A program made the translations under genes and the position numbers. DNA of 61,458 nucleotides, the filler included, from Hausera hauseri (Eukaryota), in the NCBI GenBank assembly GCA_046269625.1. It is 11 parts of 11 records of this genome, joined end to end, with 100 filler letters (N's around TTAATTAATTAA, not from the genome) between each part and the next. Parts side by side here need not be neighbours in the genome. Positions count along the whole stretch, not along the records: positions 30,807 to 40,855 come from JBJURY010247737.1; 10 more parts are not named here. One strand, 5' to 3'. The first letter of the stretch is position 1; the number at the start of each line of letters is the position of its first letter. This document shows, piece by piece, positions 6,302-54,419 of this stretch. Under the pieces are notes generated by a model, which had not been told where the DNA came from, did no database searches, and worked only from the letters and a program-made list of their open reading frames with translations.

Positions 6302-6675
6302 TAATTTTATCGTCGAAAACTTTTCTCGAATAGCTGGTATAAGCGAATCGGGTGAATCTAATGAATCTCTGTTGAGAGTTCCCTGCTTTTCTGCATTACT
6401 GGATAAAGATTATCATTTTCTTTAAATGAAATGTCAAAATCGGCGACTGCTATATCCATTCGAGCAGCATTTGGTGAAGATACAAGTTGTTTGTCTGAAA
6501 TTTTCTGTCGACGTGATTGATTTTGATTGCTTTTACAAAACTTTCGAGCTAAATGCCGCTGTCACACCTTTTTCAGAAATTACAACTTTTGCGTCGCATA
6601 CTCACATGGTGGGTAAAATCCTCTCACCGATTCGACAGCCTCAAACAGTGCAGCCACATCCTAGGCACTACATCA

Positions 6676-11516: not shown

Positions 11517-11777
11517 TGTGTGAGGTAAAAGTCTGGTGTGCAAATAAGAGTGGAAATGAAGTTATAGATTGCCGCCGTGTTTAAATGTGTTACTGCATTT
11601 GTGCAAATATTTTTGTTATTGAAGAAAAAATAGGAAATGAGGAGAGGTCGTGTAGTCGGAGGCGTGTCGTGGGGCAGCAACGAAGGGTGCCGTCCGACCC
11701 AATGGTATAGGGTGGGCGGCCGGGGCTTCAGCCTCGCCACGGCGGGTCGCAAACTGCGGGTAACCGATCTCTTACCA
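11517..11777 (-). repeat. Putative 5' LTR (about 261 bp, TG...CA) of Gypsy copy 2
   Basis: Homologous to 2313-2568 (e.g. GAGGCTGAAG..CCGGCCGCCCACCCTA.ACCATTGGGTC). Confidence 0.7.
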
Positions 11778-11974
11778 GTCTTGGTGTGGAATGTATCCAA
11801 ACCGACAAAAATAGTCGGACTAAGCTTTAAATCAATGCCCCACGGGTCATAATAAATTTTAGCAAACATATGCATTACGGTTTTATCAGCAACAAATATC
11901 AAAGTAATATTAATTTTATTTACCTAGATTTGTTTGATGATGGTGCTATCTACAATGGCTTTGTTGTCCTTTCT

Positions 11975-16503: not shown

Positions 16504-16647
16504 TATAAACAATGACGGTAAGCATATGATGATTCGGCGATATAAGTGCATGGTTTTCATCATTTTGCCCCAGTTTACCGAATCTTTCATTTACGTTTCC
16601 TTCACATAGTTGTAATTCAAGCAAAACCGACACCATCGACGACAACG

Positions 16648-17688
16648 ATGGGCGACGTGCGGTTCGATCCGCGTCATCCTGCCGGGTATACTGGCGTCAA
16701 CAAACTGGCAAAGACTGTCAAACAGACTCGGCAACAGACCCAACGTTGGCTCGCGAAACAGTTAGCATACAGCCTAAGCAAACCGATAAGAACGTGGCTT
16801 CAAACTCGTGCATACCGTGCTGCCGATGTAAATAATGTATGGCAAATGGATCTGATGGAAATGAATCCGTACTCCAGCATCAATGATGGGTATCGGTACG
16901 AGCTGACATGCTTTGATATGTTTAGTCGTTTTTCACGTGAAATTGCTGTGAAATCTAAATCCGGTAAAGAGATTGCTGACTCTGTTCAGACACAGATACA
17001 GCAACAACAACCGACACATTTACAAACGGATTTTTGTCAGGAATTCTACAACACTTACGTTGCAGTGGTCTTGAAACGGTTCGGCGTACACCACTACTCG
17101 GTGTTTTCCCAATACAAGGCTGCACCCTTTAAACGATTTAATCAAACATTGCGCGGTCGTCTAAATAAATTTTTTACGAAGCAAGGCAACAAACGCTTGG
17201 TAGATGTACTGCCGAATATTATTCATGCATACAATCATTCAACACATCATGGCATCAATAAATTACGTCCGGTTGACGTAATTGATTATTTGGATATGTG
17301 GCTTTATCAAAACCGAAAACAACAACGACAATGACAACAGGCAATTAAACGCCCAAAATATGAAATCAATGCTTACGTACGTATTTCAAAAATACGTACG
17401 ACGCCATTCATTAAAAATTTCAGTCAGAAGTGGAGTGATGAGGTTTTACGCATTTCAGCAATCAACACAAAACAAACACCTGTCGTGTACGTTTTAAAGG
17501 ATTAAAACAGTGAAGAAATACGCCGTACATTCTACAAACAGGAACCGCAGGTACTGCTCTAGAAATCCGACCTATATCGTATTCAGGAAATTCTACGTTC
17601 ACGTGGCAAAGGTTCAAATAAACAATATCTCGTCAAGTGGCACGTATACACTGCACCGAGTTGGATTTTTGCATCACAAATTCAATGA
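16648..17688 (+). pseudogene. Polinton retroviral-like (rve) integrase with C-terminal chromodomain
   Basis: FDPRHPAGYTG, WQMDL, FDMFSRF, LQTDFCQEF, FKRFNQTL (catalytic E appears as K), YNHSTH. Downstream frames give YVRISK..QKWSDEV and YRIQEILRSRGKGSNKQYLVKW. Confidence 0.9.
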
Positions 17689-22609: not shown

Positions 22610-25600
22610 TTATTTCAGCCGCCAATGTCCATACGCCCAACTCTTATTTTGCCCACCCATTTTCGCTTATCATCGTTACATGACAAAGCGACTTTCGCAC
22701 TAATTATTGTGTATAGCTAGTGCTTAATTGATCGGATGATCGTTTGAGACACATCAGCCCCTGATTGTCCTCCTTCTGCTGCTGCTGCTGCTTCATATGT
22801 ATGGCGATAATCACCGTGGTCGATTTTCTTCTGCTTCAGCTGGACTCCTTTTGCTCGCATTTTCGGTCCACAGTCCGTCATAAGACTAGCACTTTGGGCG
22901 TAGGAATATCCATTCCCAATGCTGAACCCGACCTTCACTTTCATCCTTGAAACAGCCAATTTTGTTGATTATCGCGCTGCCGTACAACGGATGATCCGAT
23001 TGGTAGGTGGACGTGTCCAGTAATTAATCTGACTGCATTTGCTGCAGTAGCGGTTCGCGATTGACTCTTCAGCTTAAGGAAAAAACTATCTGTCACCGGC
23101 AATTATACTAATGTTACAGCCGTCAAAAATTTGCCGGTAACGTGCCAAATCGCGATACTGTAGCTCATACATCCGCAACTTGCTCAGGTCTAATACCACT
23201 TGTCCGATGTAACTTGGCCGGTTCAGAACGACTTCTCTGTTTAACGGCACCGCAATCAATCCATCGGCAATGTTCATTGACCACCGAAACTGTGCCTTGC
23301 TGGTATACGTAACCAGCCGATTTTTGCTGTTGCCTAGGCGTACATTGAGCCGCTTTTTCAGATTCTCCACTGTTTTCCGTACAGGGAATTGTTTTTCAGC
23401 TTGCAATAGCCCTTTTCGAACTTTGTACAAGCTGCGGCTCGTTTCTCCGAATTTCCATCTGTGTACGCCCTCAATATCGGAGCTTGAACAAATCGGATTG
23501 CACGATTCAGCTGTGCAACGCGTACACCGAGCTGCGTGTAGAACTGTAGCGGACGCCAATGGACCACGTAATTCAGCTTTGGTTCATGCATCATGAGCAG
23601 TTTCTTCACTTTTTGGTTAAATGGTGCGACCGGCAAATTGTCCAAAACGTCATGCAGCTCATCTGGTATCTTGAGATCGACCTCCATCAGGTATCCGACT
23701 CAGCTTGCCATGTCTGCTCGTGGTAGGTTGACCATTATGTCGTCCAGATCTTGTTTGTCGACTACCCATTCAAATGAACCGTACGGCAAGGGTTGCGAAA
23801 ACGCCCAGCCTTGTAGGTTATTAATATCAATATACAGCAGTGACGTGGTATCTGTAGCACTGATCTGATGCTTGTTGACAAATATCATGCCACCTCGAAT
23901 ACCAAAATCAAACAGCCGGTATATTTCCGGGTATTGCAGCAGCTCAATGTCACGATCCAGTGACATTAGAGCTGACGCCCAACTCATTCCCTGTATGAAA
24001 TAAACGTTGAGTGGCTCAGCCTATCTTCAGCCAACGCTTTAGCTCGAAATATCTGAAACACAACGGCTAATAAGTACACTTCCTGTTTCAGATACTGAAG
24101 CATGCACTCCAACATATTTCTGCAGCCGAGTTCTGTCCAACACCTCTGTACTTTACGGTATTCATCCTCTGCGATACCTGTCCATCGCGACAGTAATTCT
24201 TCTGCTGTTCGGAGTCTCTCATATGATGTTGCAAAGTCATACGGGAATATGCCTTTGCCACGCGCAATCTGTGGGGAATTGCGTCAATGTTATCTGTACA
24301 TTCGGCAGGGTATTTACGAGCTTTACTAGAGACTCATTGAGAAATTGTAATGAGTCGAGGAAGCGTACCTGGAACCGGTTTATGCGTGCTGACAGGGACA
24401 GGTATTTCTCCATTGTTGTTGGGATTACTGACAGTTCCCAGTTGGGAAGTCCATCAATGGCCCATTTCAGTATGTGGTGAAAATCATAATATCGAAAATT
24501 ATGAAAGATCACCGGTAAAAATTGCCGCACACGCCTTGCCAAATTGCATGAATTACATGCTGCTCCGAGATCTTGATTACTAAAATGATCGTGATTCGGT
24601 ACGAGCCGTTCCAGTTCATCAAACGGTAATATTTTGTGGCACAGGTAACATTCATCTGTGACTGCAAACCTAGGGCGTTCATCATCATCTGTGTACATCA
24701 AAGGTTTATTGCTATTTCTACTGTACCAGGGTGCGATTTTAATTTCCACTATAGTTTGCAATTGCTGCGGGAAATCATGTACACAGTTCCAGCCGTGAAA
24801 GACGTAATACTGCGGCTGACCGACCGCTTTTATTGGGACAAGCTACATACTAACGGCGATTGGAACTTGTTTTTGATCATACACGTTGTGCAGTGGTAGA
24901 ATTGCCTCAATATCGGCATATACCACATATGCCGGAATGTCTATTTTCGACCAGTCACTGAATCGGAGCTCCTTTCTGGGTGCATAACGTACATGGTTGT
25001 TCCCGTTGAATTCTGCTTGCACAGCGTCACATGTTTCTCCAGTGTTGTTTTTGACCTGAAACCATGCAGACATCGTATTCGCTTTTTGATGAACTGGTCA
25101 TGTTCCATGTTCAACAGTCTATTCAGATTTGTCACTGCCACGTAATGAAATTTTTCGGCCTGCTCCAACGGCAACAAATTTACCGAGCGTCCATTTAGGT
25201 ACCGACTACGATAAATTATCTCCACATGCGGGTTCTTATAAATTTCTTCGTCTTCCGGTATTTCAATTATTGTGTTGTACCGGAAAACGTTGATTGACAG
25301 CGTCGGATTACGCCGTTCAAAAGCCGGAATGGTGTTCAGTTTTATCCTCATCCAGCATTGATCAAATTGCAATTCGGAAAAATACTGTCGATACTGATTT
25401 GGACGATTTGCATGATATCTGTTCACTTCGCTGTACTTCAGTACAGCCAGAATACTGTAAAGAAAACAGCATTCGTCTTCAGTATTTTGTACATTTACTA
25501 CCGCCCGAGACTGCTTTAGAGATGCAGGTGTCGGTATGAATGACCGTCCAGACAAATATACCACGTCACTCGACTTTGTGATGATAAAGCTGAGTGTGAC

Positions 25601-26050
25601 AATTCGTATAATTCGCCATCCACTACCCTTTTCGGTATAGTTGGCAATTTTCTCATCCAACTTTTCGCCTACATCGGCAATAAAATTTTTCGAATACTGT
25701 ACGGCTCGATGTGACAGGTACCATTGTTTCCTGTCGCCCTGTACATTTTCAAATTCTGAAAGTGCATAATATTGCACTTTGCAGTTGTTGAGTTTGAATT
25801 TCTCCACCTCTAATTTCAACCGGCTGCGCACACCGTACAGAACATGTCTGAGCTGTAATGTTGTTGTCCCCGACATGTTTACTTTCATGTCCACGTACGA
25901 TTTATTTAGATTGTACTTGACAGTAATGGAAGGCTCTTGCTGTTGCATCTGCTGCCATTCGGTACTGTTTCGGATGTATTCGTCAAGACTTGTTGAGGCC
26001 TGACGTTTATTGCTTGTTGAGGGGATACTGTTTTTTCTTGTCACCATCAC
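22610..26050 (-). pseudogene. Protein-primed family B DNA polymerase (pPolB), heavily frameshifted
   Basis: AVVNVQNTEDECCFLYSIL; VVYADIEAIL; FHNFRYYDFHHIL; RFLDSLQFLNESL; GIRGG; YIDINNLQGWAFSQPLP; EVDLKIP; KLKNNSLYGK; RPSYIGQVVLDLSKLRMY; RAKGV; DDKR..YGH. Confidence 0.93.
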
Positions 26051-26352
26051 TTTCCTTTTTGGACCGTTGAAACTGGTTCAAGTGGTCCTTGTGCTAGTTA
26101 TAAAATTGTTCATAGTTGATTTCATCAACTATCGAACAACCGGGACAAACGTAGGCCCGTTTACCGTGCACCGTTGTGGCGCCATAGTACTGCTCCATTA
26201 CACTGGCAACCATCAACGTCATGCACTCTACTACTACAGTATCGCGAGTATGTGGGGCAATGCACAACCATCATCTTTGCACGCGTAAACGGGCCAAGAT
26301 GATGCTTGTGCATCGCATAAAAGTCGGGGTATGGACAAGGGGCCGAAATACT

Positions 26353-26452: not shown

Positions 26453-26456
26453 AATA

Positions 26457-28516
26457 ATGATGTTAGTGAAGCAGATGGGAGCAGTCACCATATACGACTG
26501 TGACAAATTCAAGGTGGGCCAGAAATATTCATTGATGGACTTAGAAACATGTGAGGATGCGAGGCCCCACAAGCTTCAGGCAATAGAGAAGAAATATATA
26601 CTATATCAACAACGTGAGTTAATTGTAATGGATGCAACAGAATTCATGATACGTAGGTCTCGCAGCATATTTCATTGTGGTAATATGCACGGCCATTCTT
26701 CAATAATCAAACCTACTACACCATTGATACCAATGAACGTGGACAGACAACATTGCTTAGGAGCCCGGTCAACCGGTAAAATGGTTTGGGACAGCATGGA
26801 ATTGGAAGCCCAAGAAGGAAAAATAATTAGAGCCTACAAAGTGGCAGTAGGAAAATTGAACATGCACACCGGTTATTGTGTCGGGGGAGAATATGACACA
26901 GGGAAGGGAATAGAAGGAGGAATAGTAATCGTAGATTTTTATGAAACCGAGTTAAGATCCTTAAAAGCGATGTTTCATAGCGTTACCAAACTATTCACCG
27001 AAAATCAGAAATGTCACATTTATTATGGTGCTTGCACGTTCCGAAGTTCGGTTATTGCATGGAATTCACCTTCCAAGAAGGATTGCAATTTCATCAAAAT
27101 CAAAGAGTTAAAATTTAATGAAACCACAGGGAAGCGTTATTCGAGCAATTTACATGCTAATACCAGACCAAGGGAAGATGTAATAGAACAATCCACACCG
27201 ACGATATTAATATCAGACGTGCATGGGTTATGCATGTAGTTATGCGATGTAGTTATGCATGCCACTAACTAAGAAGCATTTTTTGTAGCGGCGACAGAAA
27301 TCGACATGAAAACGTATGATTTAAAAACACAAGATGTGCGGATTGAGGATTACCTCAAAAACCGAGACAACTATTTCTATTATAAGGGACAGACCGGAAT
27401 AGCGGAGCTATATCACAAAATGATAACAAATGACGCAGATTAGATACTGAAGTCATGAGAACCAAACTGGCTTTAATTTACGCCAATCCAGAACTGGCAT
27501 CACCAATTATTCCAATGAAAGACGGTATTTTCGGGCGAGTTACTGGAGAAGTCCTATTAACTTACGAATGCGAGAAAAGAGACGTACTGATCAACGTAGA
27601 AGAGAAGAGATTTATGCAAGAATTACCGGTCATCTATGAAAATATGCAGAGACTAGCGATGCCACTCATCAGAGTATTATTGACAAACTCCACCGAACCA
27701 ACAATATTGAAGGAATGCAAAACAAGTTTAGGCGAACCTATGTTTAGACGTAGTGGAAATGACTAGATAAGTCAACCAAACGGAGGTACGGCCGCAGCCC
27801 CTAGTAAATTAACCGAGATAAATCTAATCAAAGGGTTATCGAAAGATAAATTCGAAGATACAGCTAATAAAGGAATTTATAGGCCAAAAGACATAGAAGC
27901 TTTTAGGCAATTTTTAGCATTTATGCGTCAGCGAACTTATGAACTGAATCGGGCCATGTCAGTGGTCATGGATGACACCCGCTTTCAAGCGAAATGGGAA
28001 TCGTTACTCAGCGCTAATCACTATCAAAGAGTAACTTCAGAGATATTGTATAGAATTTGGGGAAGGTTTTTAATTTTCGGACAAGCCGCATCTGGATTCT
28101 TAGCCATCTACTTCTTAATCCAATTAGTTAAAGCAATGATCAAAGCTATTATAAACGGATATAAAATATTCACCTTGACAGGATTCTCTTGCAAAATTTT
28201 GACCGCAATTATCATACCCTTTGGAAAAATGCTAAAGGCGTACGAGGAAAATCCCTGGAAAAATGACGTAGAACGACACGTGGGGTACTATAACCGCAAA
28301 CGACGAGGGAGGCCTTCGATTTTGTATAGACGTAAAAATAAGACAATAGTAACACGACAGAACGATTCAGATGATAATGAGCCTAAGGGAGGAGAAGTAA
28401 GTTCCAGAATGAGGATGCACAAAATGTACTCCGTAATTAACGCACCGTTGCCCATCACGCCGCCAACAGCACCAATATATGAAGACTGCGGCCTGCAAAT
28501 CAATCGTATCATGTAG
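26457..28516 (+). pseudogene. env: Envelope glycoprotein of chuvirus-like / gB-type class III fusion family, with stops and a frameshift
   Basis: IYDC...YSLMDLETC, LYQ, IFHCGNMHGHSS, YCVGGEY, GEVLLTYEC...QELPV, and TM WGRFLIFGQAASGFLAIYFLIQLVKAMIKAIINGY match the recalled chuviral glycoprotein pattern. Confidence 0.8.
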
Positions 28517-33712: not shown

Positions 33713-35720
33713 CTATGTAAAAATGTAAAATCCTAAACGTATCATTATCATCGAGAATTCACCTCTTATGGCGAGTTCCGTAACCTCCCTGGCCAGCAAG
33801 TCGAGGTTACGAGTAATTTCCGCAGTTGCTGGATCCTGTGACCCATTCGGACTGGTGTCGTTCGACGGTTGAGGACAATCAGAACCGGCCGACCATGTTG
33901 GCACAATACGAGTTGCTGGTGAAACTGAAGACTGATCAATGAGCGTATCGACGACCGGATACGTCTGACATTGGAGAAATAACTCCATCAGAGCACTTTG
34001 GTTTGGGGCGCTCATTGTCCGTTCTACTTGGCGTTTGATGAATGCCTGATGGGACATGTCGGTGAATTGCTGGGGTTGATTGAACGCTGCAGTTGACGCG
34101 GTCAAATGGACGGGTAGAGTCATGTCACCATAAGGTAGGTAGGGTTTGTTGTGAGATAATTGGAATCCCAATGCCGGTGGTACCGGACACAGTTGGTCGA
34201 GAATGGAACAAGCAGGAGTGGGCGGTCGGACGATGGTTGGCGCATTGCCATTGGGGAAATTGCACGTCTGCATGGTGAGTTGCTGTCGTCCGCTGTTTTT
34301 TCTATGAGTGGTGACTCTTTGGGATTCGTTGGTTTTTCGTGGAGGACCTTTGGAATTCTCTAATTGATTTCTCCAGGACATGCAGAGATTCTTATGACGA
34401 GATGTGAATGCCTATGGACAAAGTAAAGAGGAGAAAAGTTGTGTGTGACAAACATCATGATCCAAAATGGTGTCAATGATCTGAATGAACGTGAGGTAAC
34501 TCTCATCATCCACCTTCTTACTAACAAGCAGTTGTGAACAAACTCTGCTCAAACACCGAATGATCTGACCAGGCAGATCACCCTGGACAACGTCACCATT
34601 TACGGAATGCGGTGGACTATCAATGCCAAATGACGCTGTAACGACATAGCCGGAATTATCGGGGGAAAATAATTTAATTGGAGTTGCCAAAACATGTTTC
34701 ACTTCATTTACACAGGCTCGCAATGCGGCAATACTGCCCGATGAAATAAGGTCAGATTCCAGCTGCCTTAGTGTCGGCTGTCGTGATTCGAGTTTTTGAA
34801 TATTCAGAAGGATTTTGTTTCGTGCGCCTTTTGTAACGTTCTGTGCCTCAAGCCAATCATCCGTAATTGACATCATCCCATCATAATCCATCTGCTGGAA
34901 CAAACTAGCATATTTATGCAATCGCAGACTCTTCAACCATCCAGGTACACATGCCATACCAGAACTATATTTCTGCTCTAATTGGTGATGATGATAATGA
35001 TGATGATGCAATTGATACTGATGAATAAATGAATTACGCCGATCACCAAAATCACCAATTGTATGACGCATCAATGGTACTGATGATGACAACGACTGAC
35101 AACATATCCCATCTGACTCATTGTCATCATTATCATGTTGTAATGAAGGTCCATTGTTATCCATCGCTGCTGTATTTGTCGTTGTTGTTGTCGTACCTGT
35201 CAAATGACACGTACGAATTGTCGTACCTCCTACCAATACTGATGATCCACTGCTTGGTGTTGGTGTGTCCATTGATGACTGACCCTGCAGAGATCCTGTA
35301 CGAGTTACCTGATTGTTATCTGATGACGATGAACCATTATTATCAATCATGCCAATACAACATGGCGGATTATTGTGACTGTTGTCAGGGTCATATGATA
35401 CGGAATGAGGTAACAACATTTGTTCATCACCTGCACAACTTGATGTGCTACTCTGTGGTGACAATGGTGGTTGCGTACGTCGACCAACAGATGACTCAGC
35501 ACCAGACATGAATCCACTGGAATTGTACGAGCATGCCGATTGAGGTGATGCCGATGCAGACAAACAATTGCCACCTCCACCAACAAAAAATTGCGGCACG
35601 AGTAATGAGAATGAGTGGGTCTGTGACAGATTCGTTCCAGTGGCGAATGGTGATAAAATGCTGGGTCGACGAAGTCGTTTTGGTTCTTCTTTTTCATCGA
35701 GTAAATGTCGTTCGGTGGCC
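33713..35720 (-). CDS. SAMD4: Smaug/SAMD4 homolog C-terminal part (SAM plus PHAT domains), 42-nt intron 34412-34453; fused in frame to COG3 fragment
   Basis: SGMACVPGWLKSLRLHKYASLFQQMDYDGMMSITDDWLEAQNVTKGARNKILLNIQKL; GDLPGQIIRCLSRVCSQLLVS; spliced DHD|AFTSRHKNLCMSW; VERTMSAP; EITRNLDLLAREVTELAI. Confidence 0.85.
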
Positions 35721-35759
35721 AATTCATCAATCACGGAATGGCGATTTATTTCCACAGAT

Positions 35760-37082
35760 AATAATTTCTGCATGCTCTCAGCAATTGAAATCATCATTTC
35801 CAATTTTGCTGGATAAGCAAGATCGCCGGAAGACGGAGAATACCCAAGTATTTGTGATTTTATATAAATATGGGTTCTGAATACGAGTCTTTCTTGCACA
35901 TCAACCAAAATTATTTGACACATTCGATCAATTGGTGAATCCGACAACTCTGTTTTCGCTGAAAAGTCTTCAACGAGCTCAAGTTTCAAAATACAACAAA
36001 GTTCAGCTAATGTTTCAAGATGATTTATATGTATAATAAAAGGCCTGAACTCGTCATATAAAATAGTACAAAGCTGCGTCAGCATTTCTTTAAGCATTTT
36101 ATAATCTGAGTTAACAAAAAATTGTTGATATAAATTGGTTTCATCATCGCGCATTCGAATCATTAAAGTTCCTCCACTCCTGACGAAAGCACAACGATCT
36201 TTTGGAAATCGATTGATTAAATCGTCAATAGAACACTTGATTACTTGATTTAAGAGCTCTTTTCTATTGGAAATAAAATGTTTTTCGCATTCTTGCAAAC
36301 TTTGTCCATATAAATCACAGATAAGCTTCCTGCTTGAAATTAACTCGATAAATGGTCGTAACTTAACACCCTGAGAACGAAATTTACCGCACAGCATCGT
36401 GAATGATTTATCCTGCGTAATTTCAGCCTTATTAGTAAACTGGGCAAATGTTTTATTAATTTCTTCAGTAAAAAATGTAGAAATTCTGTTTAAAATTTTC
36501 CATAAACAGTCTGTAACTTTCAGTAAATAATTTGATGATTCCCGGTAATTGATCTTTGATGAAAGAAATTTATAACAGTCATCAATCTGATTGAGAATAG
36601 GTTCCAAATTTTCAACGGTTAACTACAGACTGGGAAAAGATATTTTCATAGTTAAATTGTCTACTGCAATAAAATATTTTGAATTTTCCTCAATCGATTT
36701 GGCTTTCTCAATGTATTGGTTCTGATCATTCAAAAGATGTTGACATGCTTCATGCAATGCATTTGTTTTATTAGACGTGTTTAAGTATAATGTTTTTAAC
36801 TGGCTCATTTTGTCCAAACACTTCAATTTCCAAATGAATTTCATCACATAAGTTTTTCTTAGATTTTATGTCCAAAATAATGTCGTTGCTTTCTGCTTCT
36901 TCATCTACATTATCAAGAGACTTTTCTACCGAATCGAGCCAATTATAAACTTCATCAGCTAAAATTTCTTCGTAATCCGGAAATTGTTTAATTTTAAATT
37001 CAGCCTCGAACGTTTCTGAAACCATTAATTCACTATCCACATCCCACTTCTGACACCAATTTGTGGGTTGATTTAAATCCAT
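35760..37082 (-). pseudogene. COG3: COG3/Sec34 N-terminal part, with one frameshift and one stop, 3'-truncated
   Basis: TSNKTNALHEACQHLL; LNQIDDCYKFL...NYRESSNYL; LCTILYDEFRPFIIHINHLETLAELCCILK; DVQERLVFRTHIYIKSQILGYSPSSGDLAYPAKLEMM. Confidence 0.88.
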
Positions 37083-37440
37083 TGTTTAAAATAAATTCCA
37101 CAATGTAAATTCCAAAGAAATGAACTAGCAAAGAAAACAGTTGAGACTGTAAAGTTTATTCAAAAGTTTTTTATCGATCAACTTAATTAATGATTACATT
37201 TCTTTTATCTACAATATTTACATAAAAAGGCATTTGTATATATATACAATGAATGTCTAACACGTTGACTAACAATATTTACATAAAAAGGTATTTGTCC
37301 ACTGTCCAAATTCAGATCACCCATTTGATTGTCCAATAGCGGGAATATTGACAAAGTGTGGAATGACGTATTTGAAGTAATTGATTGAAGAGGATTGACA
37401 AGAAAGAGTATTGAAGAGTTGTAAGATGACGTAATCACAG

Positions 37441-37560
37441 GTTGTTATCTTCTGATTTGTTGAACGATTTCATTGAACAGGTTGTTATCTTCTGATTTGT
37501 TGAACGATTTCATTGAACGCGTTGTTATCTTCTGATTTGTTGAACGATTTCATTGAACGC
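37441..37560. repeat. Tandem repeat, 3 x 40 bp
   Basis: GTTGTTATCTTCTGATTTGTTGAACGATTTCATTGAAC(AG/GC) repeated three times. Confidence 0.95.
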
Positions 37561-37877
37561 GCCCACGACCGCGGCACCACATCGAGGTCCTGTCGATCGG
37601 TAATGTATTTATGTTTTTACTTCGAAGTTTCCGGATTGTCTGATAATATTTTCTAAGCACCACAATTTTCTTTGCTAGTTAACAGATAAAACTAAATTCA
37701 GTTTTCAAATCTAGTATTAATGAACACGAAACCTACCGTAAGGTTTCTTCTGATAAAATTATCAAGATCAGTTATATCAGGTTTTGAGAGAGCAAGTTAG
37801 TGTTAGTGTTGTTTGTAAATATCTCTGCGTGTATTTATTCTCTTCGATCTAGTACGGATATCTAAATTTAATTTTTT

Positions 37878-38075
37878 ATATTCATTTGACGTCAATCTAG
37901 TGATAACGGAAATTTAATTTTATATTCATTGGATGCATTTGACGTCATTCTGGTAATAACGGATATCTAAATTTTATATTCATTTGACGTCAAACGGCTG
38001 GCTGATTCAATTTCTATAATTAAGTTACTGACTAATTTCTATATCCAAACGACTGGCTGATTCAATTCTTATAAT
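37878..38075. promoter_or_regulatory. Repeated enhancer-like block with three TGACGTCA (CRE) palindromes, possibly LTR U3
   Basis: CATTTGACGTCA at 37887, 37940 and 37985 in about 50-bp imperfect repeats; CTGGCTGATTCAATT twice. Confidence 0.45.
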
Positions 38076-38367
38076 TAAAATTTAGTTATAAAATTCATGA
38101 TTTTATAATGGCTGTAAAATGGGTCACAATTACATACATACATCAGTAAACAAAGGAAATCCATCAACGGGTTCAACAGTTCAAAAGACAAAAGAGGATT
38201 TATTCCATTAAATATAAGTTGTCAATACATTAACTGTCATAAGTGTCAAAAATGTCAAAATCATGTTAAATGAACTGTGTCATTGTTAATGTCAAAGTTA
38301 TCGAAGTCATATGAATTGAGAGTAATAAGTCTGAGTCGGATCTCCAATAATCCCCAATTAATAGATC

Positions 38368-40742
38368 TTAACACTTATATAGCAAATAAGATATAGCCCT
38401 TTGAGCTTTTTCTCGCGTAATTCCTGTAGCCAACATCTTCTCCAGAATTTCCAATTTGTGTAGCTCATTTATCCTTTCTTCCTCTAGATTCTCATAAAAT
38501 TGTCTACTTATTCGCAGCATTCTATTACATAACGTAGTGAATACTTCATCTGGAATTATTACTTGCGTGTCGAATGAGCAAATGATGTGTGTAGCCTGGC
38601 CAGTAACGTTCTTAGTAAGGGATCTATGTCCACTGGTTTAGGGGAGTCATTTGTTCCTGCTAGTAATAAACGTCTTACTATTTCTTCATTTCTAACTTTC
38701 CTATTTTCGTTCCTCTCGGCCTGCCTCTTCTCTTGGCTTCCGTCTGAACCGTAACGTCTTGTGTATCACCCATAGGGTTTTCTACTCCTCGTTGTTCCAT
38801 TTCTCTTAGGATATCTTCCACTGTTGCTTTCGCTCTTGCCTTTGGATGTATTTCAGTTATATTTATCGGATTATAGTTCTCACTTCTGCATCCGATTCTC
38901 AGTAGTCTATAGTAACCGTATAGTGTCCTTCCACAATAAATTAATCCATAAGGACTGCCTTGATAAAATGGTTCCAGCTCCTATATCTTTTCTCGTAAGG
39001 TTTGTATGTCATCATTTTTGTTCATCCGGATGACTTTCATATCTTGATTTCCTTCTTTTATCGTTATTCCGATAGCTTCATTTCTTCATTTCTCTTCTTC
39101 GGCAGCTTTGGCTGGCACAGTCCTGGCTATTTCTCTCACAGGACTGATATCTTGGGCTAACAATACCAATTGCGGTAAAATTTCATTTATTCTTTCTACC
39201 GTTACATTACTGGTAATTATCTTCAGTATTGTAGTAGTTGTTTTATCTACATCGACTATATTATTGGGGTCTATTGTCACTACAGATTGTATAATATCAT
39301 CTTCTTCGTCTAAGTCTACACCGGGATTCTTTATTATTTGATCCAATATCGTGGCATCAAAAATCGGTGAGGCTTCGGTTTCCTCCTGACTAAGGGAAGG
39401 TGTACTGAGATTACTCTTCTTTCTTCACCTTTTCTTTTCCTTTTCTACTTCTTCTCTTTCTGTTGACGTCTCTCTTAACTCGACGTCCATGTCGACTATT
39501 TTCTTATTACTTTTCTTTTTTCCTTTACGAGATATCTGTTTCTCCGGTTGATCTCCTACCATGTAGATATTACTTTCTTTCAGTCTTTGTTGTTGTCTTT
39601 TATACTCCTTCACTTCTATTTCTAATTGCTTCTTCATACGTAGGGATAATGAATCATTTATATAGTTAATACTTTCTTTCTTCTTGTCTCTCTTCTTAAC
39701 TTCTTGTTCACTAACACTATCATCCGTTTCGTATTCTCTGTCGGATGATTCGTCTGACGTAGCTGATACATTATCTCTCTTTTGCTTATTCTTAATACTT
39801 GGTTTTGAGGAGTCCCTTTTACGTGATCTACATGATTTTGCTATGTCCATACTTATTACAATTGAAACATTTTAGTATGACTTCGGAATCTATGTTAGGT
39901 AGTGATCTTCCATCTTTCTTATATTTCTTCTTATAACTTGCTTTTTCTCCGTCGTTCTGTAAATTGAATCTCACTTTTCTTTCTCCATCTGATTCAGCTT
40001 CGGTGGCTGACGTTTGTGAGGGGCTTCTATTTCTTTCATAGCGTTGATATTTTTGCATACTATTATTTCGTGTTTTGTCGTAGCCATTATTATTACTTTT
40101 AAATTTATTCCACCTATACAATTCCGCATCTCGTTCGGCCTTTCGTGCCTTTCTTATGGCTTCCTGGAAGGTAGGTAAGTCTGCTTGTGAGATTATCATC
40201 CTTAATCTTTCTTCTAATCCGTACTGAAACTGGGCTAACAACGCATTGTTTCGTATCGTAACGTCAGGATGTGCTCTCGCTGCGAGTTTCTCCAATGCGC
40301 AGACAAAGGCCTGGACTGTTTCATCTTTTCGTTGCCTCCTTCTTATAAATTCTTCAATTCTCTCCTTTCCAGAGGGATCTATCAGAAACTTTTGAGGCAG
40401 ATTTTCTTTAATTCCTTTCGAGTCCTTCTTATTTTCTTCAGGCATTTGGAAATAAATCACGAAAGCCGTCCCTTTTAAATGAAGGGGTAATCTTTCCATT
40501 CTTTGCTTGTTGTCTCAGCCAAAACTTTTGGAATATACTTCGTATTCCATCATAAAATCTTGTATATTTTCTTTACCTGAAAACGTCTTCATTGGTAAGG
40601 TGAAGTCAGCCTTTGACTGAATCATCTGCTCTACATTTTGGTTTGCCATGGGTTATTCTTCGCTTAAATTTTGTATATACTCTAATCCAAAGGGTACGTT
40701 TTCTTCAGGTTGGTACACTGTTCCTTTTCTTGTCGTTATCAT
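38368..40742 (-). pseudogene. gag: Retrotransposon Gag polyprotein: capsid - CCHC knuckle - charged linker - ubiquitin-like domain - AT-hook - UBA-like tail; no pol
   Basis: KTFSGKENIQDF...G*DNKQRMERLPLHLKGTA, RRQRKDETVQAF, QFQYGLEE, CFNCNKYGH(fs)IAKSC. The same frame continues through three stops to IGITIK...DDIQTLREKI*ELE...GLIYCGRTL and KRRGRPRG. Confidence 0.75.
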
Positions 40743-40778
40743 GCTACCGTTAATCTAAAGGCCTATTAATTAAAATGT

Positions 40779-40796
40779 TCCCGGGTCACGGCACTA
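40779..40796 (-). other. Primer-binding site, tRNA-His-like
   Basis: TAGTGCCGTGACCCGGGA versus canonical TGGTGCCGTGACTCGGAT, just upstream of gag ATG 40742. Confidence 0.75.
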
Positions 40797-40855
40797 GTTT
40801 ATTCAGTATTCACTAAGGGTATCCTTATAACTACAATTAAAATCGTTCTTTTGTC

Positions 40856-40955
40856 NNNNNNNNNNNNNNNNNNNNNNNNNNNNNNNNNNNNNNNNNNNNT
40901 TAATTAATTAANNNNNNNNNNNNNNNNNNNNNNNNNNNNNNNNNNNNNNNNNNNN
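40856..40955. other. Artificial contig spacer
   Basis: N44-TTAATTAATTAA-N44. Confidence 0.98.
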
Positions 40956-43379
40956 AAATCCTTTTATTGGCTTTCTTATCGACCATCAATTTCATTCGAG
41001 ATTCCTTCGTTCGTTGCACCGTATCGTTCTCCTGGGAATCATTCGGGGCATAGTGTCGCTAGCGTACGTGTTCTCGGAAATTCGTCCGTTGTCATTCTTT
41101 TCGGTGATGTGTCATGTGAGCCTTTCCCTTTCATTCAACACATAGGATTGTTCTTCCAGGAATTGCTCTGCGCGTTTTTTGCTGTCGTTCGTTTTCTGGG
41201 TAATTAAACGGCAGTATCCTTTTCGGTCGTCGATTTTATCTGAACCGTGTTCGATTCTGCCCTACCTCGTCTATTGATGTTCATATCGTTCGTCTGCTTC
41301 ACTCTATCCTTCCCTTTTGATTCATTGTAGAAGGTCGTTCTTCTGAGAATGGTTCGTTTGACTGTTTCATCGGAGGCTTTTCCTTTCGTTTGTCGTTGAG
41401 ATTCCCTCTGGTCGATCTTACCGGATTGGATTGATTCGGCGTTTGAGTGAGAATTTTTCTTTTCATTTCAGAAAACCAAAATCTCCTTTAAACAGCATAT
41501 TCAAACAAATTAATTCCTTTTTTCATCCCATTTCCTGATTGACTAATTTAATTTTTTAAATTGACTGGAAGTCAGTTCGTGGAAATTCGATGCAGATCAA
41601 TTTTTCTGAAATTCTTCGAGGGTTTCGAATTTATTTGTAGTTTCCTGCCTTATATTAGTGGTTTTAATTTCGCAGGGTTAATGTCATGTAGGCAAAATTT
41701 ATATAAACGAATTGATTTCGTGTAGTTTTTTCACGTGAGCGAGACTGAATTTAAATTTTGCTGTAAAGTAACGCATTACATTAACAATTAAATATGGCTT
41801 TATAAAATGTATTCCCTACACTTGGAAATTAGCAAAATACTACGAACCAAAAACTAAACACATTGTTAGAAATCCTTTCTATACCGGAAGAAACGAAATT
41901 TCACCTAGATGGATATGCTGTTGGATCCCCCACCTGTTGATGTTTTTTTATAATCATGAAAAGTCAGAATGATGACAGATACCCTATAGTCGATGAAACC
42001 AACAGTTCAATAGTGGAAGCGGAAGGCCATATTTTATGTCCATCAAGAAGCTGGAAGGGGTTTTCAGTGAAAGTTATGTTATTCTTTTGGTTCGATTCAA
42101 TTTAATAATTAATCACCAGGAACAACAGTTAATCCAGATGAATGAAAATATTATGTTTCGGTGAGCCCTACTTAACACCCGAACTATAACAATGAAACTT
42201 AAAGTTTGGGAAAATTTAAATGCAGTCGATTTGTGTCGAGTTAATGCAAAGTTAATAACGTTCTTCGACCTATATTTTATGTAATTTTAAGTAAAGTTTA
42301 AACCTATGGTGGTCAAACTCTCCTGATGGGACAGTGAAAAACTATATAGAAATTTTAACAAAAAATAATTCAAATAAACTTTATTTCGCGGTAAACAACC
42401 TCAGAAAAAGAAAATCGATCAGTGAATAAGTTACGTCAGTTCAATAATCAGTCAATTAATGGTACGTTCAATTTCTCTCGAATCGGTTATAAGGTCGACG
42501 TGATTTCAAATGGATCGTTTTGATTCCTGATTTTCAGTATTTGAAGCCTGCTTATATAGTGGAACTGGTCACCGTATTTACAATCTGATTAAACAATTAA
42601 TTTAAATTTTTCAGGTTTTAATACCATTGCAATTATTTCCATATTTACTATTTGATTGTTGTGTATTTTGATAATTGAAATTCTACAATAATTCTATGAT
42701 TAATATTTACAATTCAACTATTGGCTTAAATAAACAATTTGCATTCTAACTAATTTCGACTGTGCCAACTCGTTGTAATGCATTACGTTACACATATATT
42801 GTTTCCTATCCAAACCGGCTTAAAGATTTATCGATTTCAATGTGCTTCACCTTCAATTTTACCTCAACTGCACATTCAAATTAAGAACCGTTGAATTACA
42901 TAGTATTTTTACTGAATTTTACCATATTGAAAAACCTTGTTTTAATACACCGCGACGCCCTGCACCTCACCAATTTCGATTTGCTTATAAGTGTTTGTGC
43001 ATGTGGAATCGAACTAGGTCGTTAGATTCTTCGAATAATGTACGCTTGACCGAGTTTTCAAGTTTGAATAGCTAAATATTCGACTTTTGATCTCAATTTC
43101 GAATAGGTGATATCATATTCCGATTCGCCATATATGGATTCCTATTTGTATGCGGTTATTAGATTTATCGATTTATGCCTCACTGAGCTCAAAATGCACA
43201 TGTTTCTTAAATCGAAATATTGATTTTATATATATAGAACATTTTTATGGAATAATTTTAATGGATTTTTCGAAAAATTCGAAGTTCAATATTGGGGCAA
43301 AAAATTTTTGAATATGTGACTCAATATTAGAGATCTCCATACTCGGTTTCATATTTGTCCCCGCTCAATGTAATATCGA

Positions 43380-45695: not shown

Positions 45696-47195
45696 TTTGG
45701 AGCAGGTTCTCTGCGCAGCTGAGGCTCCATCTGTCTCAGTTTGAGAATGACGGCAACAATAATAATAGTAGTAATAACAGTAATACCGGATATAACACCA
45801 GCAATGATGATGTATCTCTGTTCCATTTCTAAGGCTGAATCAATCATTGTGGCGTTTGTGAAATCAACTTTGATATATAAATACGTGTTGTTATGAAGGC
45901 GTGGGTTTCCAAAGTCTTGGACAGAAAATGTCAGTCTGAAGTTTGTTTCACTGCTTCTTGTCAGACGTCTCGCCAAGTAAACAGCGCCAGTGGAATTGTC
46001 AATGCCGAAAGTCTGTCGAGGATTACCCTCGGCGATCAGGTATAGGAGCTGGGAGTTTCTGCCGAGGTCTAAATCTGTGGCACTGACTGATGTAAAGACC
46101 GTCCCCGGAGACATGTTTGCACTGATTGTTATGGAATCATTTCCAGGCCAGGGATAGATAATTTGTGGACTGTTATCGTTGGCATCACTGACGCTTATGG
46201 TTAGGGTTGCAGTGGTGGTTAACGAAGGTGTTCCCATATCACATACAGACACGATGATTTTATAAACGTCCTCTGCTTCCCTATCGAATGTCTTCACGGT
46301 AGTTATGGCGCCAGATTTAGAAACTTGGAAGCTTGTATTCGGATCGGAGACTAGATGAAACACAAGCTTTCCGTTGATACCCTCGTCTCCGTCTGTGGCA
46401 CTAATTTGAGCAACGAATGTGCCAGGTTCCTCATTTTCCTTGGTTTGGTACTCAGTTCTCGTGATCCGTGGGGAAATGTCATTGACGTCTTCAACAAATA
46501 TCGTCACTGTGACGCTTCCTGTCAACGAGGGTTTTCCTTTGTCGACGGCCTGAATGGTTAGATACAGTATTGGATTAGCTTCTCTGTCGACTGCAGATTG
46601 AAGGGATACCCAACCTGTAAATGGGTCAACAGTGAATGCGTCACTAGTGTTCATCGTCAGGTGATACGTTACTTCACTATTGATGCCTTCGTCAAGGTCA
46701 GTAGTGGATACTTGGACAACATTTTCATGCATCTTCTCGTTTTCTGTAACACTACCACTGTAGCTTGATCCAGGGAAAACTGGACTGTTGTCATTGACAT
46801 CAGACACTCGAACCGTGAAATTCACGGACGTTGACAGACTTGGCAACCCTCGATCTGAACACTTCAGAATAACAGTCATCTCGCTTTCCGATTCTCTGTC
46901 CAGCGTCGCCTTGACTTCGATAGCAAGACCGTTTTCTTCAATAGGCGTAAGAGCAAAATGAGAATTCAAAGAAACGCAGTCAACTGCCCCACTGTCTCCT
47001 TCATCAGTATCGTGGTACCTCAGTCTTCCGACAAACGATGCCAGTGAAATATCTTCGGATAATTGAACGCTATTTGGATAGACTGGGTCTGCAAGAATGA
47101 GTGATAGCTTGGGTGGTGTGTTTCCAACATCGAGAACATTAATTACAACAATAGCTTGTGATGCTTTAGGAGATCCCCCATGATCCTTTGCATGA
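45696..47195 (-). CDS. Protocadherin large exon (at least four cadherin repeats plus TM), 5'-truncated or interrupted
   Basis: LDRES, VSDVNDNSP, VDREA, EDVNDISP, FDREA, SDANDNSP; TM YIIIAGVISGITVITTIIIVAVIL. Sequence upstream of AKDHGGSP is not cadherin. Confidence 0.88.
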
Positions 47196-50100
47196 GTTGT
47201 GGGCGTGACCCAGAACCGGCATCTGTGTTGGGGCCTGCAGTACGAACTAACAAAGTTTTTCTGAGCGTTATGGATTACAAAATGTTGGAACACCGCCTGA
47301 CAAAGCTCAAACAGGACAATATAATCATATACCTGCCTACTGCGGTGGATGGATGGGAGGGAGACCTGAAGAAAGGTGCTGCTGATACATGTTAGCATTT
47401 TAGCTAGGCTACTTGTTGCTTCTGACGCTGGAGCCATGAACAACCTGTAGCATATCAGTACCTGCACGGTAATAAGGTCGGTCGTGTTTTGTTAAAAGAG
47501 GTGAGATATGATCTTATTTACATTAGAGCAGATGTAGAGTCCACCTAATGTCTAATCTCCCAGTGCTAGAGTTGATAGGGAGAATGAAGAGTTTACTACA
47601 GAGCAAATCCAACATGAAGCTTAAGTTAGTTTCCAATTCCAGCTTCCAACTCGGAAAATGACTTAAAGGCGATAACAACTAATTTTTCACTACCTCTAGC
47701 AAATATTCTCTTATTAGTGTAGTTTGAATAATGTAGTACTGGTTTGATGGATCTGGGTGTTGTAGTTTTTGAGCTAGAGCAGATTAATTATGCTAGAGGT
47801 AGTGAAGAAATAGTTGGATTCATCCTTTAATCATTTCCTGAATCGAAAACTAACTTTAGCTTTGTGAAACCAACCCACAAACATTCCTGAATGAACACTT
47901 TCATCCACCTTTGCTGGGATTACTGCAGCTTGATATGAGAGGACAAAGAAGGAAACAAAACTGCTCATGGAGGCTCAAAGGTCCACTGTGGAGCAGAGGT
48001 GTGTCCTGACCACCTCACAGCTCCATGTGACTCTCAGGTTTCTGTCAGCCCAGTGGTGACATCACATGAACAGAAGATGGAAAATGTGTCATTCTTCCAA
48101 ATGGGCAAAGTGGATACTACTTCCTGGTGAGTAAATATTGTTACTTACAACCTATGAACTAATGTGACAGATACTTGTAAACATTCATTAAAATAAACCA
48201 TATTTAACATTTCTTCTTCCAGGTCCAGCTGACAGCGAGGTGCTGGCGCTGCAGAGCTGAAGGCTGCTGATCTGGACACCAAAGAGCAGCTGGAGTTGGA
48301 CATTCCATCTGACAAAAACTTTACAGATGCTCACATGAAACGTCTCCTTAATTTATACTTTTCACACATACTTTCATCATCGGTAGATGAATTTGTGCAA
48401 ATAATATTTAGATCTGCCCCAAATACCTGAATCTCTTCAAAATACAGTAAGCAGATAAATGTTATGTGTTTTACATAAAGAAAACATAAAAAAACCCAGA
48501 ATGAAGCTAGAAGAAAAAATAAGTCTTCATTTTTGTTTTCCTTTAATTAAAAGCATAAAACTTAAAAATAAAGTAATTAAGACATAATCACACTGTACAA
48601 TACAGAGAAACATTATTTTCAATTTACATTTGTGTTTACAATTTAATAAAATGATGTAGTTATAAAATCTATTTTTCCTGTTTAGACTTCAGTCTGTTTA
48701 GTTATTCCTGTTTTTAGAAAATGGTCAAAAAATGAAGTCTTCTTAGTTTTCACTTAAAATCAGTTTAGCTCTTAAATTCACTAAGCCTGCACAGATCTTA
48801 CTGTTTCAGGAGGCAACCACAAAATACAACACTTGATGTGTTCTGACATTATTCACATTTCAACAGTTTTGCTGACCTGATCTTGGGATGTTTTAAACTG
48901 CTGAAGGCCCACTTTAGGTCACACTGTAACTTGTTCCAACTTATGAAAATTTAAAGACATCTACTCTGAAGATGAAACAAAACAAATCATCCAGAAGCTA
49001 TTTTACACGTGTCAATACCGTAATGCTACCAAAATAATAAAACAACTTATTTTTAATTTATACGTAAAAAAATCCCAAGATGTCTAAAATGATATAGTGT
49101 GACCGGGCCTTAAATGACCCGTGACAAAGTTCTGTTTTAGTTTAATCAGAGTCAGGATTTGGTCCAGAACAGGCAGAGTTAGTGAAACAGGAGTAAATGG
49201 TTGTAGGCAGGATACAAGTGTGTGAAACTCTGAATGAGTACAAGAGGGAGTCCACATCTGTCTCAGACAAACTGAGGCTCTTCATGTTTTTAAGTCTTTT
49301 CTCTCTGGCTTTTGACTCAGCTTGAAGTGCTGTTTTTACAGTTACCCTTGTTGGTTCTGGTTATTATGTACACCACTGTTAAACTGTGTTGTTTTAAAGT
49401 GTTTTATAAATAAAGCTGGCATGGAATAGTTGTGTTACTCCATCTTATCGCTGTGTTTGGGCATCACAGGTTGGCCTTGATGTTGATCACAGCTCCTCGT
49501 TCTCATCCACTGCGTCAGGCTCATCTGAAGGTAGCAATAAAACACAGGTATTAATGTTAGATTAAGATTGTTCCCTAGCAGTATAACATGTATCCTCCCA
49601 TCAACCTTTATTTATGAAGGACGCGATCCCCTATCTTTCAATCATTTACTGCTTTAAATTAGTTGAAAATAAATAGGAATTAAAATAAAAATATTTTTAA
49701 TGATTTAAAATCAGTGTTTATATTAAATGAAGTCATAAATCATCTAGGACCGCCACTGACTGAAATATTTTTTCACCCTGACTAAAATCTTTAGAAAACC
49801 TGGTGCACAGATACAGTAACATTTAGATTAACATAAAAGAAAAAAGTGCCACAGGACTTCTTCAACATGTTTAATACATGTCTTATGTTTCTCTGCCATA
49901 AACACGTATTTTAATTGCAGAGAAAATAGTATTAAATATGAATGAATTCTATAATGCAGTGCCCTTCAGACACTAAAATCATACCTGATATTCTGGTTGT
50001 TTTAACCCTTCTGAGGATGCAGCGTCTCTGCTCCGGTTGTTGGTTGAAGTCCAGACACAGTAAAGCTTTTCCTCCATGGGCCGTTTCACAGCAAAATGAA

Positions 50101-53172: not shown

Positions 53173-53985
53173 TTATTTAACACATGTAAAAAATTCATCT
53201 GATAAAATTTCTGAAAATGATATTCTTGAACATGGATTCTTCTTCAAACATTTTCTAATCAATCGTTCTGCGGGTTTCGTACAAAATCTTAATCCCGGTA
53301 TTTGACCTTTCAATGTATCTTCTTTTGAATCGAACACCATCACCCCTTCTATGCAGGTGAACATCAAACAACCAAATGAAAATACTTGGCTTTTTTGTAC
53401 GTCATACTCTTGTCTCATTAAGATTTCAGGACTTATGTAACCCATAGATCCTGTATGTCGGCTATCTCTCGGAGTCTGTGTATTCACATTGTAATAACTG
53501 TCTTCAAAATCAATGAGCTTGATATCAAAAGATTTTTGATTTACCATTACATTTTCTGGTTTAATATCCATATGATACACCCCTTTGGATGAAAGTTCTT
53601 CAATACTTTCAATAACGTTTCTAAAAATTGTTCTCAACACGTCAATTGGTCTCTGAGTTTCCGTATATTCAAACAGATCAATCCAGTCGTCACTCAAGTG
53701 TTCCATGACAACATGAAATTCTTCTTTGTTTTGGAAAGTATCGAGAACCTTTGGACAGAATTTGCTATCTTGAAATATTCGAAGAAAATGCAGTTCTTTT
53801 GGAATCGGATAAGGAAATTCATCGATTTCTGTAAAACTATTTTTGTGATATTTTTCAAAAACCTTCACAAATGTAGTTTGATGAGATGTATTGCGATTAG
53901 TTTTGTTTCGGGCAATGTAATTCAAGTTCTTGTTTCGAGTATCGAAATCACATATTGGTTCGTATAACTGATGACGCATTGTCAT
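53173..53985 (-). CDS. Ser/Thr protein kinase, PIM-like, single exon
   Basis: FVKVF, IPKELHFL, DLFEY, YHMDIKPENVMV, KLIDFE, GSMGYISPE, VFSFGCLMF, LIRKCLKKNPCSRI. Confidence 0.85.
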   Translation of the reverse strand: MTMRHQLYEPICDFDTRNKNLNYIARNKTNRNTSHQTTFVKVFEKYHKNSFTEIDEFPYPIPKELHFLRIFQDSKFCPKVLDTFQNKEEFHVVMEHLSDDWIDLFEYTETQRPIDVLRTIFRNVIESIEELSSKGVYHMDIKPENVMVNQKSFDIKLIDFEDSYYNVNTQTPRDSRHTGSMGYISPEILMRQEYDVQKSQVFSFGCLMFTCIEGVMVFDSKEDTLKGQIPGLRFCTKPAERLIRKCLKKNPCSRISFSEILSDEFFTCVK

Positions 53986-54419
53986 TGTTTATGATGCTTC
54001 TTTGAATGTGGATTTGCGTGAAATGGAAATTATTTTTTGGATAAATTTATTTATTTTCAAATTTGTTGGATGTTGAAATTGTAATTGTTTTCTTATTGCA
54101 TCGTGTAATTGTTGGACAATTTTATCATTATTTACATTAGCATGAAATCCGTGATAACTTTGGATTTTTGAAAACCCATTTCTCTCATTTATGCGTTCTT
54201 AAAGTAACTTTGTTGATAAACTGTATTTTTCTTGAACATCATATTGAAACTGGCACTAATTACTAGTTTTTCCAACGTTATAAAATATTTAAAATATTTA
54301 ATTTTACTTCATTTACTTTCATGTTTCTACCCTATACTTCTAAATGCATATTTTGATGATATTCTGTATAGTTAGGTAATTTTGTATGCTGAATAAAAAT
54401 TTAAATTATTTTTATCTTA

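Follow-up and report, generated by a model that had tools for sequence, protein, structure and literature searches.

A repeated Ty3/Gypsy-type capsid gene of Hausera hauseri, likely fused to a long tail with a probable ubiquitin-like domain

The window analysed here is a stretch of 61,458 nucleotides from Hausera hauseri assembly GCA_046269625.1, made up of eleven segments of 4-10 kb each with N44-linker-N44 spacers between them, and it contains a broken copy of a repeated Ty3/Gypsy-type element in which the capsid gene is likely fused to a long tail. The candidate element opens segment 30807-40855 on the minus strand, with a site resembling a primer-binding site (PBS) 59 bases from the segment end. 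The host is an animal, as cadherin repeats (E 5e-66) and a Spindle-E relative elsewhere in the window indicate. We lean slightly towards reading the element as a dead copy of a multi-copy family with one long gene, which would encode a capsid, a zinc knuckle and a conserved tail of about 490 residues with a probable ubiquitin-like domain (UBL) and an AT-hook-like motif, and which would be copied with borrowed enzymes. The stricter version, a pol-less Gypsy-derived animal family whose sole gene encodes a Gag of about 790 residues with a selected Rad23-type UBL and an AT-hook, is unlikely as it stands.

The capsid gene and its coding extension

By its sequence the capsid is a Ty3/Gypsy-type Gag. 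The gag frame, which starts at ATG 40742 and is interrupted by stops at 40655-40653 and 40517-40515, matches Drosophila Arc2 (dArc2, PDB 6taq) over residues 42-205 at E 9.9e-07, the best significant match of the capsid, and three Pfam families fall below cut-off (Ty3_capsid at E 0.029, PNMA at 0.05 and, over its first 11 residues, zf-CCHC at 0.04). Arc is a domesticated short gag, whereas the element here is repeated, decayed and long-tailed. Stop counts were compared with 2000 shuffles per region; over its 304 codons the gag frame is broken by 2 stops, where the other minus frames have 22 and 26, and none of its 2000 shuffles was as open. The preliminary description of this DNA had its motifs and their coordinates correct within a base or two, and its PBS (as a site), its capsid and its CCHC knuckle are all present, but it missed the two gag stops and the frameshift that splits the single knuckle. 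The primer of the PBS-like 18-mer may be tRNA-His or tRNA-Phe, and a 14-mer of the site was not found in a search of literature text.

Beyond the knuckle a long minus-strand frame runs from 39838 to 38684 with exactly three stops (39427-39425, 39088-39086 and 38983-38981), or 3 in 385 codons against 40 and 33 in the sister minus frames. Shuffles as open as the real sequence numbered 0 of 2000 for the extension as a whole, 0 of 2000 for the linker, 3 of 2000 for the tail and, for the 84 codons of the UBL part taken alone, 45 of 2000. The whole copy, from 40742 to 38368, carries 5 stops and at least 3 frameshifts. One long frame with three stops is what had been described; the further claim that every stop is a C-to-T change from CGA or CAG does not fit the other copies at 39088. 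The linker is basic, with 13 K/R in 35 residues (residues 106-140 of P0001), and the IGITIK stretch begins at 39073. The sequence KRRGRPRG, also present as described, is a single pattern match that resembles an AT-hook, and its region gave no family match in the profile search. Past it, the stretch 38693-38562 is open but within chance (363 of 2000 shuffles as open), copies exit the alignment at 38702, 38652 and 38578, and an indel difference lies at 38577. The tail, with LEKMLATG, is in the frame that closes at stop 38370-38368.

Other copies bear on the link between this extension and the capsid. Contigs of two DNA runs with two organism labels, X1 and X2, were aligned to the window; X1 may come from the species of the window itself. 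Over 36400-40855, where the variant-place figures rest on 40 of 755 places listed, 8,338 X1 and 1,029 X2 contigs align, most of them 80-95% alike. At the places listed, X1 contigs number 22-100 per place within 38457-40741 and 2-3 in the flanks. Copy cover is continuous over the linker, the UBL part, the AT-hook and the tail, with X2 pieces spanning 38856-39060, 38984-39216, 39227-39417 and 39497-39686. The stops at 40655 and 39088 are among the listed places, with nearly all other copies differing there, and the other three stops are absent from that list. The window copy is a broken member of a multi-copy family present in both X1 and X2.

In the tail the differences between copies follow the codon. 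Over 38280-38560, where 457 X1 and 34 X2 contigs aligned, the 40 rows listed come to 34 places once 2 outside the repeated part and 4 duplicates are taken away, and 24 of these are third positions, with 9 first and 1 second (binomial p 1.0e-5); when two places at which only the window copy differs are set aside, the third-position share is 24 of 32, and in the part 38374-38460 it is 14 of 17 (p 5e-5). Variant places are not independent events, but the codon phase is nonetheless clear. The common sequence ends at the stop codon of the same frame: summed X1 depth is 945 at 38370-38379 and 20.6 at 38360-38369, and 10 X1 and 3 X2 contigs diverge into other sequence at 38374, with 9 more at 38406. 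Our data support the extension as a coding part of the repeated element, its tail end being under selection. Cover through the extension, codon bias in the tail and shared sequence ending at the stop together exclude the possibility, raised with the preliminary description, that the downstream frame is unrelated inserted DNA.

The junction between capsid and extension is less directly covered. At the knuckle break, 39842, 16 X1 and 7 X2 contigs depart from the alignment, and the loose ends of these 23 contigs, judged by eye, resemble the following bases of the window at a short offset, which argues that other copies pass from the knuckle into the same linker. In live copies the extension of about 490 codons is very probably in one frame with the capsid, for a total of about 790 codons. 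Some points weigh against the main reading, namely, that no listed contig crosses the knuckle break or spans the whole element, that the selection measured is that on the tail, and that the top-share places of the extension have no codon bias (10 of 14 at codon positions 1-2, p 0.48). Among the top-share places of gag, 12 of 13 fall at the first two codon positions (p 0.039); neither count is informative for the UBL.

Table 1. Features of the window copy, from the PBS-like site to the 3' flank
Feature	Position	Strand	Basis
PBS-like 18-mer	40779..40796	-	sequence; 59 bases from segment end
gag frame: Ty3/Arc-type capsid at about 40619-40128, then the first half of a single CCHC knuckle	39831..40742	-	dArc2 match, Pfam, frame openness
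Single CCHC knuckle, split by frameshift near 39840	39825..39872	-	sequence; zf-CCHC; contig breaks at 39842
Charged Lys/Arg-rich linker; stop 39427-39425	39371..39838	-	sequence, frame openness
More hydrophobic stretch, no known family	39098..39370	-	chance-level matches only
Likely Rad23-type ubiquitin-like domain; stop 38983-38981 inside, stop 39088-39086 just ahead	38850..39076	-	RAD23A UBL, NCBIfam rad23
AT-hook-like motif KRRGRPRG	38711..38734	-	sequence pattern
Zone with at least two frameshifts, likely about 40 codons more in second frame	38578..38700	-	sequence, contig breaks
Helical tail at the C-terminus, under purifying selection and closed by the family stop codon	38368..38577	-	codon-position bias; model helices
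Low-copy non-coding 3' flank with 53-bp tandem array	37600..38367	-	contig depth, repeat scan, closed frames

The ubiquitin-like domain and the possible use of the tail

Sequence comparison points to a probable ubiquitin-like domain at 38850-39076. The query was an 84-residue piece with X at its stop, and among 177,635 PDB sequences it had 4 matches at E<=10, the top three being the RAD23A UBL (E 0.39-0.51), with an alignment that starts at the first strand and runs over 54 residues, 18 of them identical, with two gaps and the LIY.G..L stretch included. The sole match among the 18,950 NCBIfam models was rad23 (N-terminal positions 3-53, E 0.019). We call the domain probable because its family had been named beforehand and led both lists. 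The UBL of the preliminary description therefore stands as the likelier reading, although below threshold, while its alignment with ubiquitin itself, broken by a single one-residue gap, does not, as ubiquitin was not among the four PDB matches. The putative domain has no Gly-Gly at its end and would therefore be an integral part of the protein, not a conjugated one.

Several results speak against the domain. No UBL match is significant alone, the two Rad23 matches are not independent, Pfam gave nothing on this part at E<=10, PF11976 included, and neighbouring fragments of the extension match unrelated proteins at E 0.052 and 0.82. Modelling had been expected to yield a beta-grasp fold, but the single-sequence model is a hairpin and a helix with residues 45-63 helical where a UBL has strands (predicted local distance difference test score, pLDDT, 63.6), and the remaining four models of the part score 41-46. 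No structural match stands out in either of two aligners. Foldseek found nothing under E 0.001 for the UBL or the tail model, many of its weak top rows being beta-grasp domains (hPLIC2 UBL at E 0.56, TM 0.26), and the second aligner listed RctB domain IV (Z 5.1, root-mean-square deviation 3.9, 57 aligned), VCPIP1 588-666 (Z 3.2), PB1 (Z 3.1) and SUMO (Z 2.3-2.7). An extension that is real and selected but resembles a UBL by chance, the tail then being an orphan nucleic-acid-binding or scaffold region, would agree with the missing Pfam match, with a model that is not beta-grasp and with E values of 0.39 and 0.019 that lie within the range of the neighbouring fragments' chance matches. We consider this unlikely, since the search had a family named in advance, which then topped two libraries, the match begins at the first strand of the UBL with hairpin, helix and LIY.G motif in order, and the query is decayed, with a stop inside, which lowers its scores.

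Rad23-family proteins, shuttles with a UBL and a ubiquitin-associated (UBA) domain, thus provide the best UBL match in two libraries, over about 54 residues and under threshold, but neither a UBA nor any further part of Rad23 was seen in the element. A UBA-like end had been proposed for the tail, and it finds no support: the confident single-sequence model of the tail (pLDDT 87) is a two-helix hairpin, with helices at 10-50 and 55-68, and not a UBA bundle, and no UBA was found among even the weak matches of the tail or the extension in Pfam, PDB, NCBIfam and Foldseek. The analogy with UBL-UBA shuttles drawn in the preliminary description is likewise unsupported.

Broader searches gave no relatives. 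Word-index protein searches found no homolog of the gag frame, in the near search (E<=10) or in a longer-range one, and none of extension residues 150-385. HMMER over 1.84 billion representatives had 0 matches at E<=0.001, the whole extension had 0 at E<=10 among PDB sequences, the JGI metagenomes and IMG/VR gave 314 and 13 pattern matches but no locus, the PHROGs profiles held nothing useful for the element, and Rfam had 0 matches over 36900-42000. With no homolog in any protein or DNA collection searched, any mechanism has to be drawn from anatomy alone, which counts against the one that we propose.

That proposal is tentative and falls somewhat short of an even chance for the use of the tail as a whole. 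The Gag of the element would package its own RNA, with pol supplied from another open reading frame (ORF) or element, as has been proposed for gag-only elements of plants (PMC4350172), and the tail would be carried on the particle that the element itself makes, in which a cis-packaged Gag is open to selection. Since the tail is under selection, it probably benefits the copy that encodes it, and a role on the particle is the simplest that does so. The basic linker and the AT-hook might bring the particle to the nucleus and to AT-rich chromatin, and the UBL might engage UBL receptors of the proteasome system and thereby control the turnover or uncoating of the particle. The UBL of Rad23 binds proteasome receptors. 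A tail acting in trans on chromatin as an anti-silencing or host-manipulation module, with the AT-hook as its targeting part and the UBL as an adaptor, is a doubtful alternative. It would make use of the same basic linker and AT-hook-like motif, fragments of genes of the Piwi-interacting RNA (piRNA) pathway lie beside another LTR (long terminal repeat) element in the window, and for Burro, a planarian element, meddling with host ubiquitination and apoptosis has been suggested (PMC6431247). However, a benefit shared in trans would be harder to hold under selection at the level of copies.

The preliminary description had instead taken the UBL as a built-in late domain that recruits the endosomal sorting complex required for transport (ESCRT) for capsid budding. 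Retroviral p6, like this domain, lies after the knuckle. No PT/SAP, PPxY or YPxL motif is present in P0001 or P0002, so the role would be otherwise unfilled, and ubiquitin on the C-terminus of foamy-virus Gag is reported to promote budding via Tsg101 and ALIX (PMC2958808). This remains an analogy, and we regard the idea as improbable: the best match is a Rad23-type UBL and not ubiquitin, a nuclear destination is suggested by the basic linker and the AT-hook, the window copy has no env-like gene, and the N-terminus shows neither Gly2 nor another membrane anchor, which the foamy-virus experiment supplied by design (Lck-Gag, PMC2958808).

The UBL on the proposed particle would probably have been gained from a host mRNA via template switching. 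LTR-mediated retrocopying of host mRNA by template switching is reported for animals (PMC5131818), and fragments of host genes (COG3, Spindle-E, Piwi-like and Myb) adjoin LTR-element parts in the window; it is the published route together with these neighbouring pieces that makes capture of a host mRNA likely. Such retrocopies are reported to fuse pieces of host mRNA into LTR elements and can yield in-frame proteins; they are young and mostly single events, whereas the gain here would be an old one that is selected and has become fixed in a multi-copy family. If the UBL is true, retroelement capsids can take over the ubiquitin system through built-in mimicry, and the element would be a second case beside the 5,000-residue polyprotein of Burro, compact and far easier to study. 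It would also help to explain the encounter of Gag-derived proteins with proteasome shuttles (UBQLN2, PEG10) and the retention of long coding tails by non-autonomous elements. Should the UBL not hold up, the finding is a more modest one: a Gypsy family not recorded before, with an orphan tail under selection.

Lack of pol and relation to known elements

The window copy lacks pol. The three minus frames over 39838-36996 contain no protease or reverse transcriptase (RT) motif, except for one DSG in a short frame at 37306, nothing downstream has a tblastx match to the window's own pol stretches, and past the stop all six frames are closed (13-27 stops in 256 codons). That no protease or RT follows the extension was thus correctly noted for this copy, but the label "pol-less LTR element" holds for this copy alone, and no LTR pair bounds it. 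Whether the family has no pol of its own is in our view evenly balanced.

Nothing downstream matches the 59-base flank before the PBS-like site, no downstream sequence matches the end of the next segment beyond one 30-base match, no purine run of 10 or more, and so nothing resembling a polypurine tract (PPT), is found in 38400-37000, and no target-site duplication (TSD) was found around the copy. With no LTR pair, PPT-like run or TSD, the copy may simply be cut after gag. The family could then be autonomous, of Gypsy or Burro-like kind, its long ORF1 followed downstream by a pol ORF of its own; the lack of pol would be an accident of this copy, and the UBL reading would still hold. We put this possibility below an even chance. 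The absence of a 3' LTR is in keeping with it, as are the age and broken state of the window copy, a 3' flank that is not common to the copies (other sequence follows at 38374 and 38406) and the joining of Gag, a Ubi2/SUMO-like motif and pol in Burro (PMC6431247). Against a cut copy, the likeness is lost no more than a few bases from the stop codon, just where coding sequence would give way to fast-changing non-coding sequence, and a deletion would end there only by chance. A few X1 variant contigs of the flank exist, so the flank may be a diverged untranslated region (UTR), and no protease occurs within 490 codons past the knuckle.

The 3' flank may be a diverged part of the 3' UTR or LTR of the element, or it may be foreign DNA. 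X1 contigs match it with 1 mismatch in 266 bases and 1 in 314 bases, most copies carry other sequence there, and X2 has no cover over most of it nor over COG3, which proves nothing alone. Two tandem arrays lie in this region, one at 37437-37558 (40 bp, 3 copies, 97%) and one at 37854-37984 (53 bp, 2.5 copies), the second holding repeated TGACGTCA words. Repeated words in arrays are often seen in LTR enhancers. At the other end, across the spacer from the PBS-like site, 40956-41530 on the minus strand is purine-rich with the strand bias of the element (A 0.40, G 0.23); it may be the 5' LTR or leader of the element, and it has no downstream twin.

Two known systems come closest. The planarian Burro/GYPSM1 elements are giant gypsy-like LTR retrotransposons, described as having Gag, 2-3 CCHC knuckles, a Ubi2/SUMO-like motif (PF11976) and pol in one polyprotein (PMC6431247). 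In Burro, as probably in the element here, an ORF that opens with a Gypsy-type Gag and CCHC goes on into additional host-like domains; those of Burro include the Ubi2/SUMO-like one, where the element here has its Rad23-type match below threshold. Burro ORF1 is 4,873-5,140 aa long and also takes in MATH, BIR, BCL2 and ankyrin, with env and with pol in frame. The element here, compared with it by description, would come to about 790 codons; it has a single knuckle, its putative UBL matches Rad23 best, and its AT-hook-like motif is followed by a stop, with no in-frame pol. In this decayed copy Pfam gave no match at E<=1 for MATH, BIR or BCL2, and an ORF of the Burro type, of about 5,000 aa, is absent, as the frame and the common sequence both end at 38368.

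The TR-GAG elements of plants (PMC4350172) have one gag-type ORF, no pol and many copies, and are presumed to be mobilised in trans. The window copy likewise has a single gag-type ORF and no pol, though no LTRs are seen to enclose it, and its family has many copies. TR-GAG elements have LTRs, a PPT and a 5-bp TSD, are under 4 kb and live in plants, whereas none of LTRs, PPT or TSD is seen here and the host is an animal; the abstract and Discussion on TR-GAG name no extra C-terminal domain for them, unlike the element here (PMC4350172). On the features tested, the element falls outside both Burro and TR-GAG, yet works like a cross of them. "Apparently undescribed", as the preliminary description put it, is too strong, since Burro has a Ubi2/SUMO-like motif in a Gag-led polyprotein (PMC6431247). 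Neither this element nor any compact Gag-UBL was found described in the literature searched, which comprised few subscription papers, no Repbase and no supplements; the Burro supplements may hold shorter derivatives.

Other elements and gene fragments in the window

Several further pieces of host genes and mobile elements were seen in the window. On the minus strand at 10907-13669, fragments of piRNA-pathway genes lie directly 5' of a Gypsy gag-pro-RT, with a Tudor domain (Pfam E 2.6e-13), the C-terminal part of Spindle-E/TDRD9 (PDB 9nhs, E 3e-20) and, where frame 11923-10907 begins, a weakly matching piece of Piwi (E 0.062). An element bearing pieces of the silencing machinery could direct small RNAs against that machinery. 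Gypsy pol runs on from segment 8617-13765 into 4123-8516, which means that some neighbouring segments are adjacent in the genome.

Downstream of the capsid element, 34412-37590 (minus strand) holds an intron-free COG3 (Pfam COG3_N and COG3_C) in one 736-codon frame that continues into a SAM-domain gene, which we take to resemble Smaug. The 5' part of COG3 is frameshifted relative to a second X1 contig and is preceded by a repeated stretch of 550 bases (37590-37040), and a second PBS-like 18-mer is present at 37058, ahead of the COG3 reading. This frame is likely a chimeric LTR-mediated retrocopy. At 1-3371, also on the minus strand, a decayed Myb-repeat frame (Pfam Myb), presumably similar to CDC5L, lies upstream of a leader with 69% likeness to the leader of the 8617-13765 element.

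A piece of a Monjiviricetes-type fusion glycoprotein (26453-28516, plus strand, E 5e-21), one of a protein-primed PolB (24237-26077, minus strand, E 1.4e-06) and a lone integrase (16546-17334, plus strand, E 2.9e-06) probably derive from an env-bearing retroelement and from Polinton-like elements. The cadherin repeats are in an exon at 45696-47491 on the minus strand (E 5e-66), and an intron-free protein kinase frame is found at 53173-53988 on the same strand (E 9e-34).

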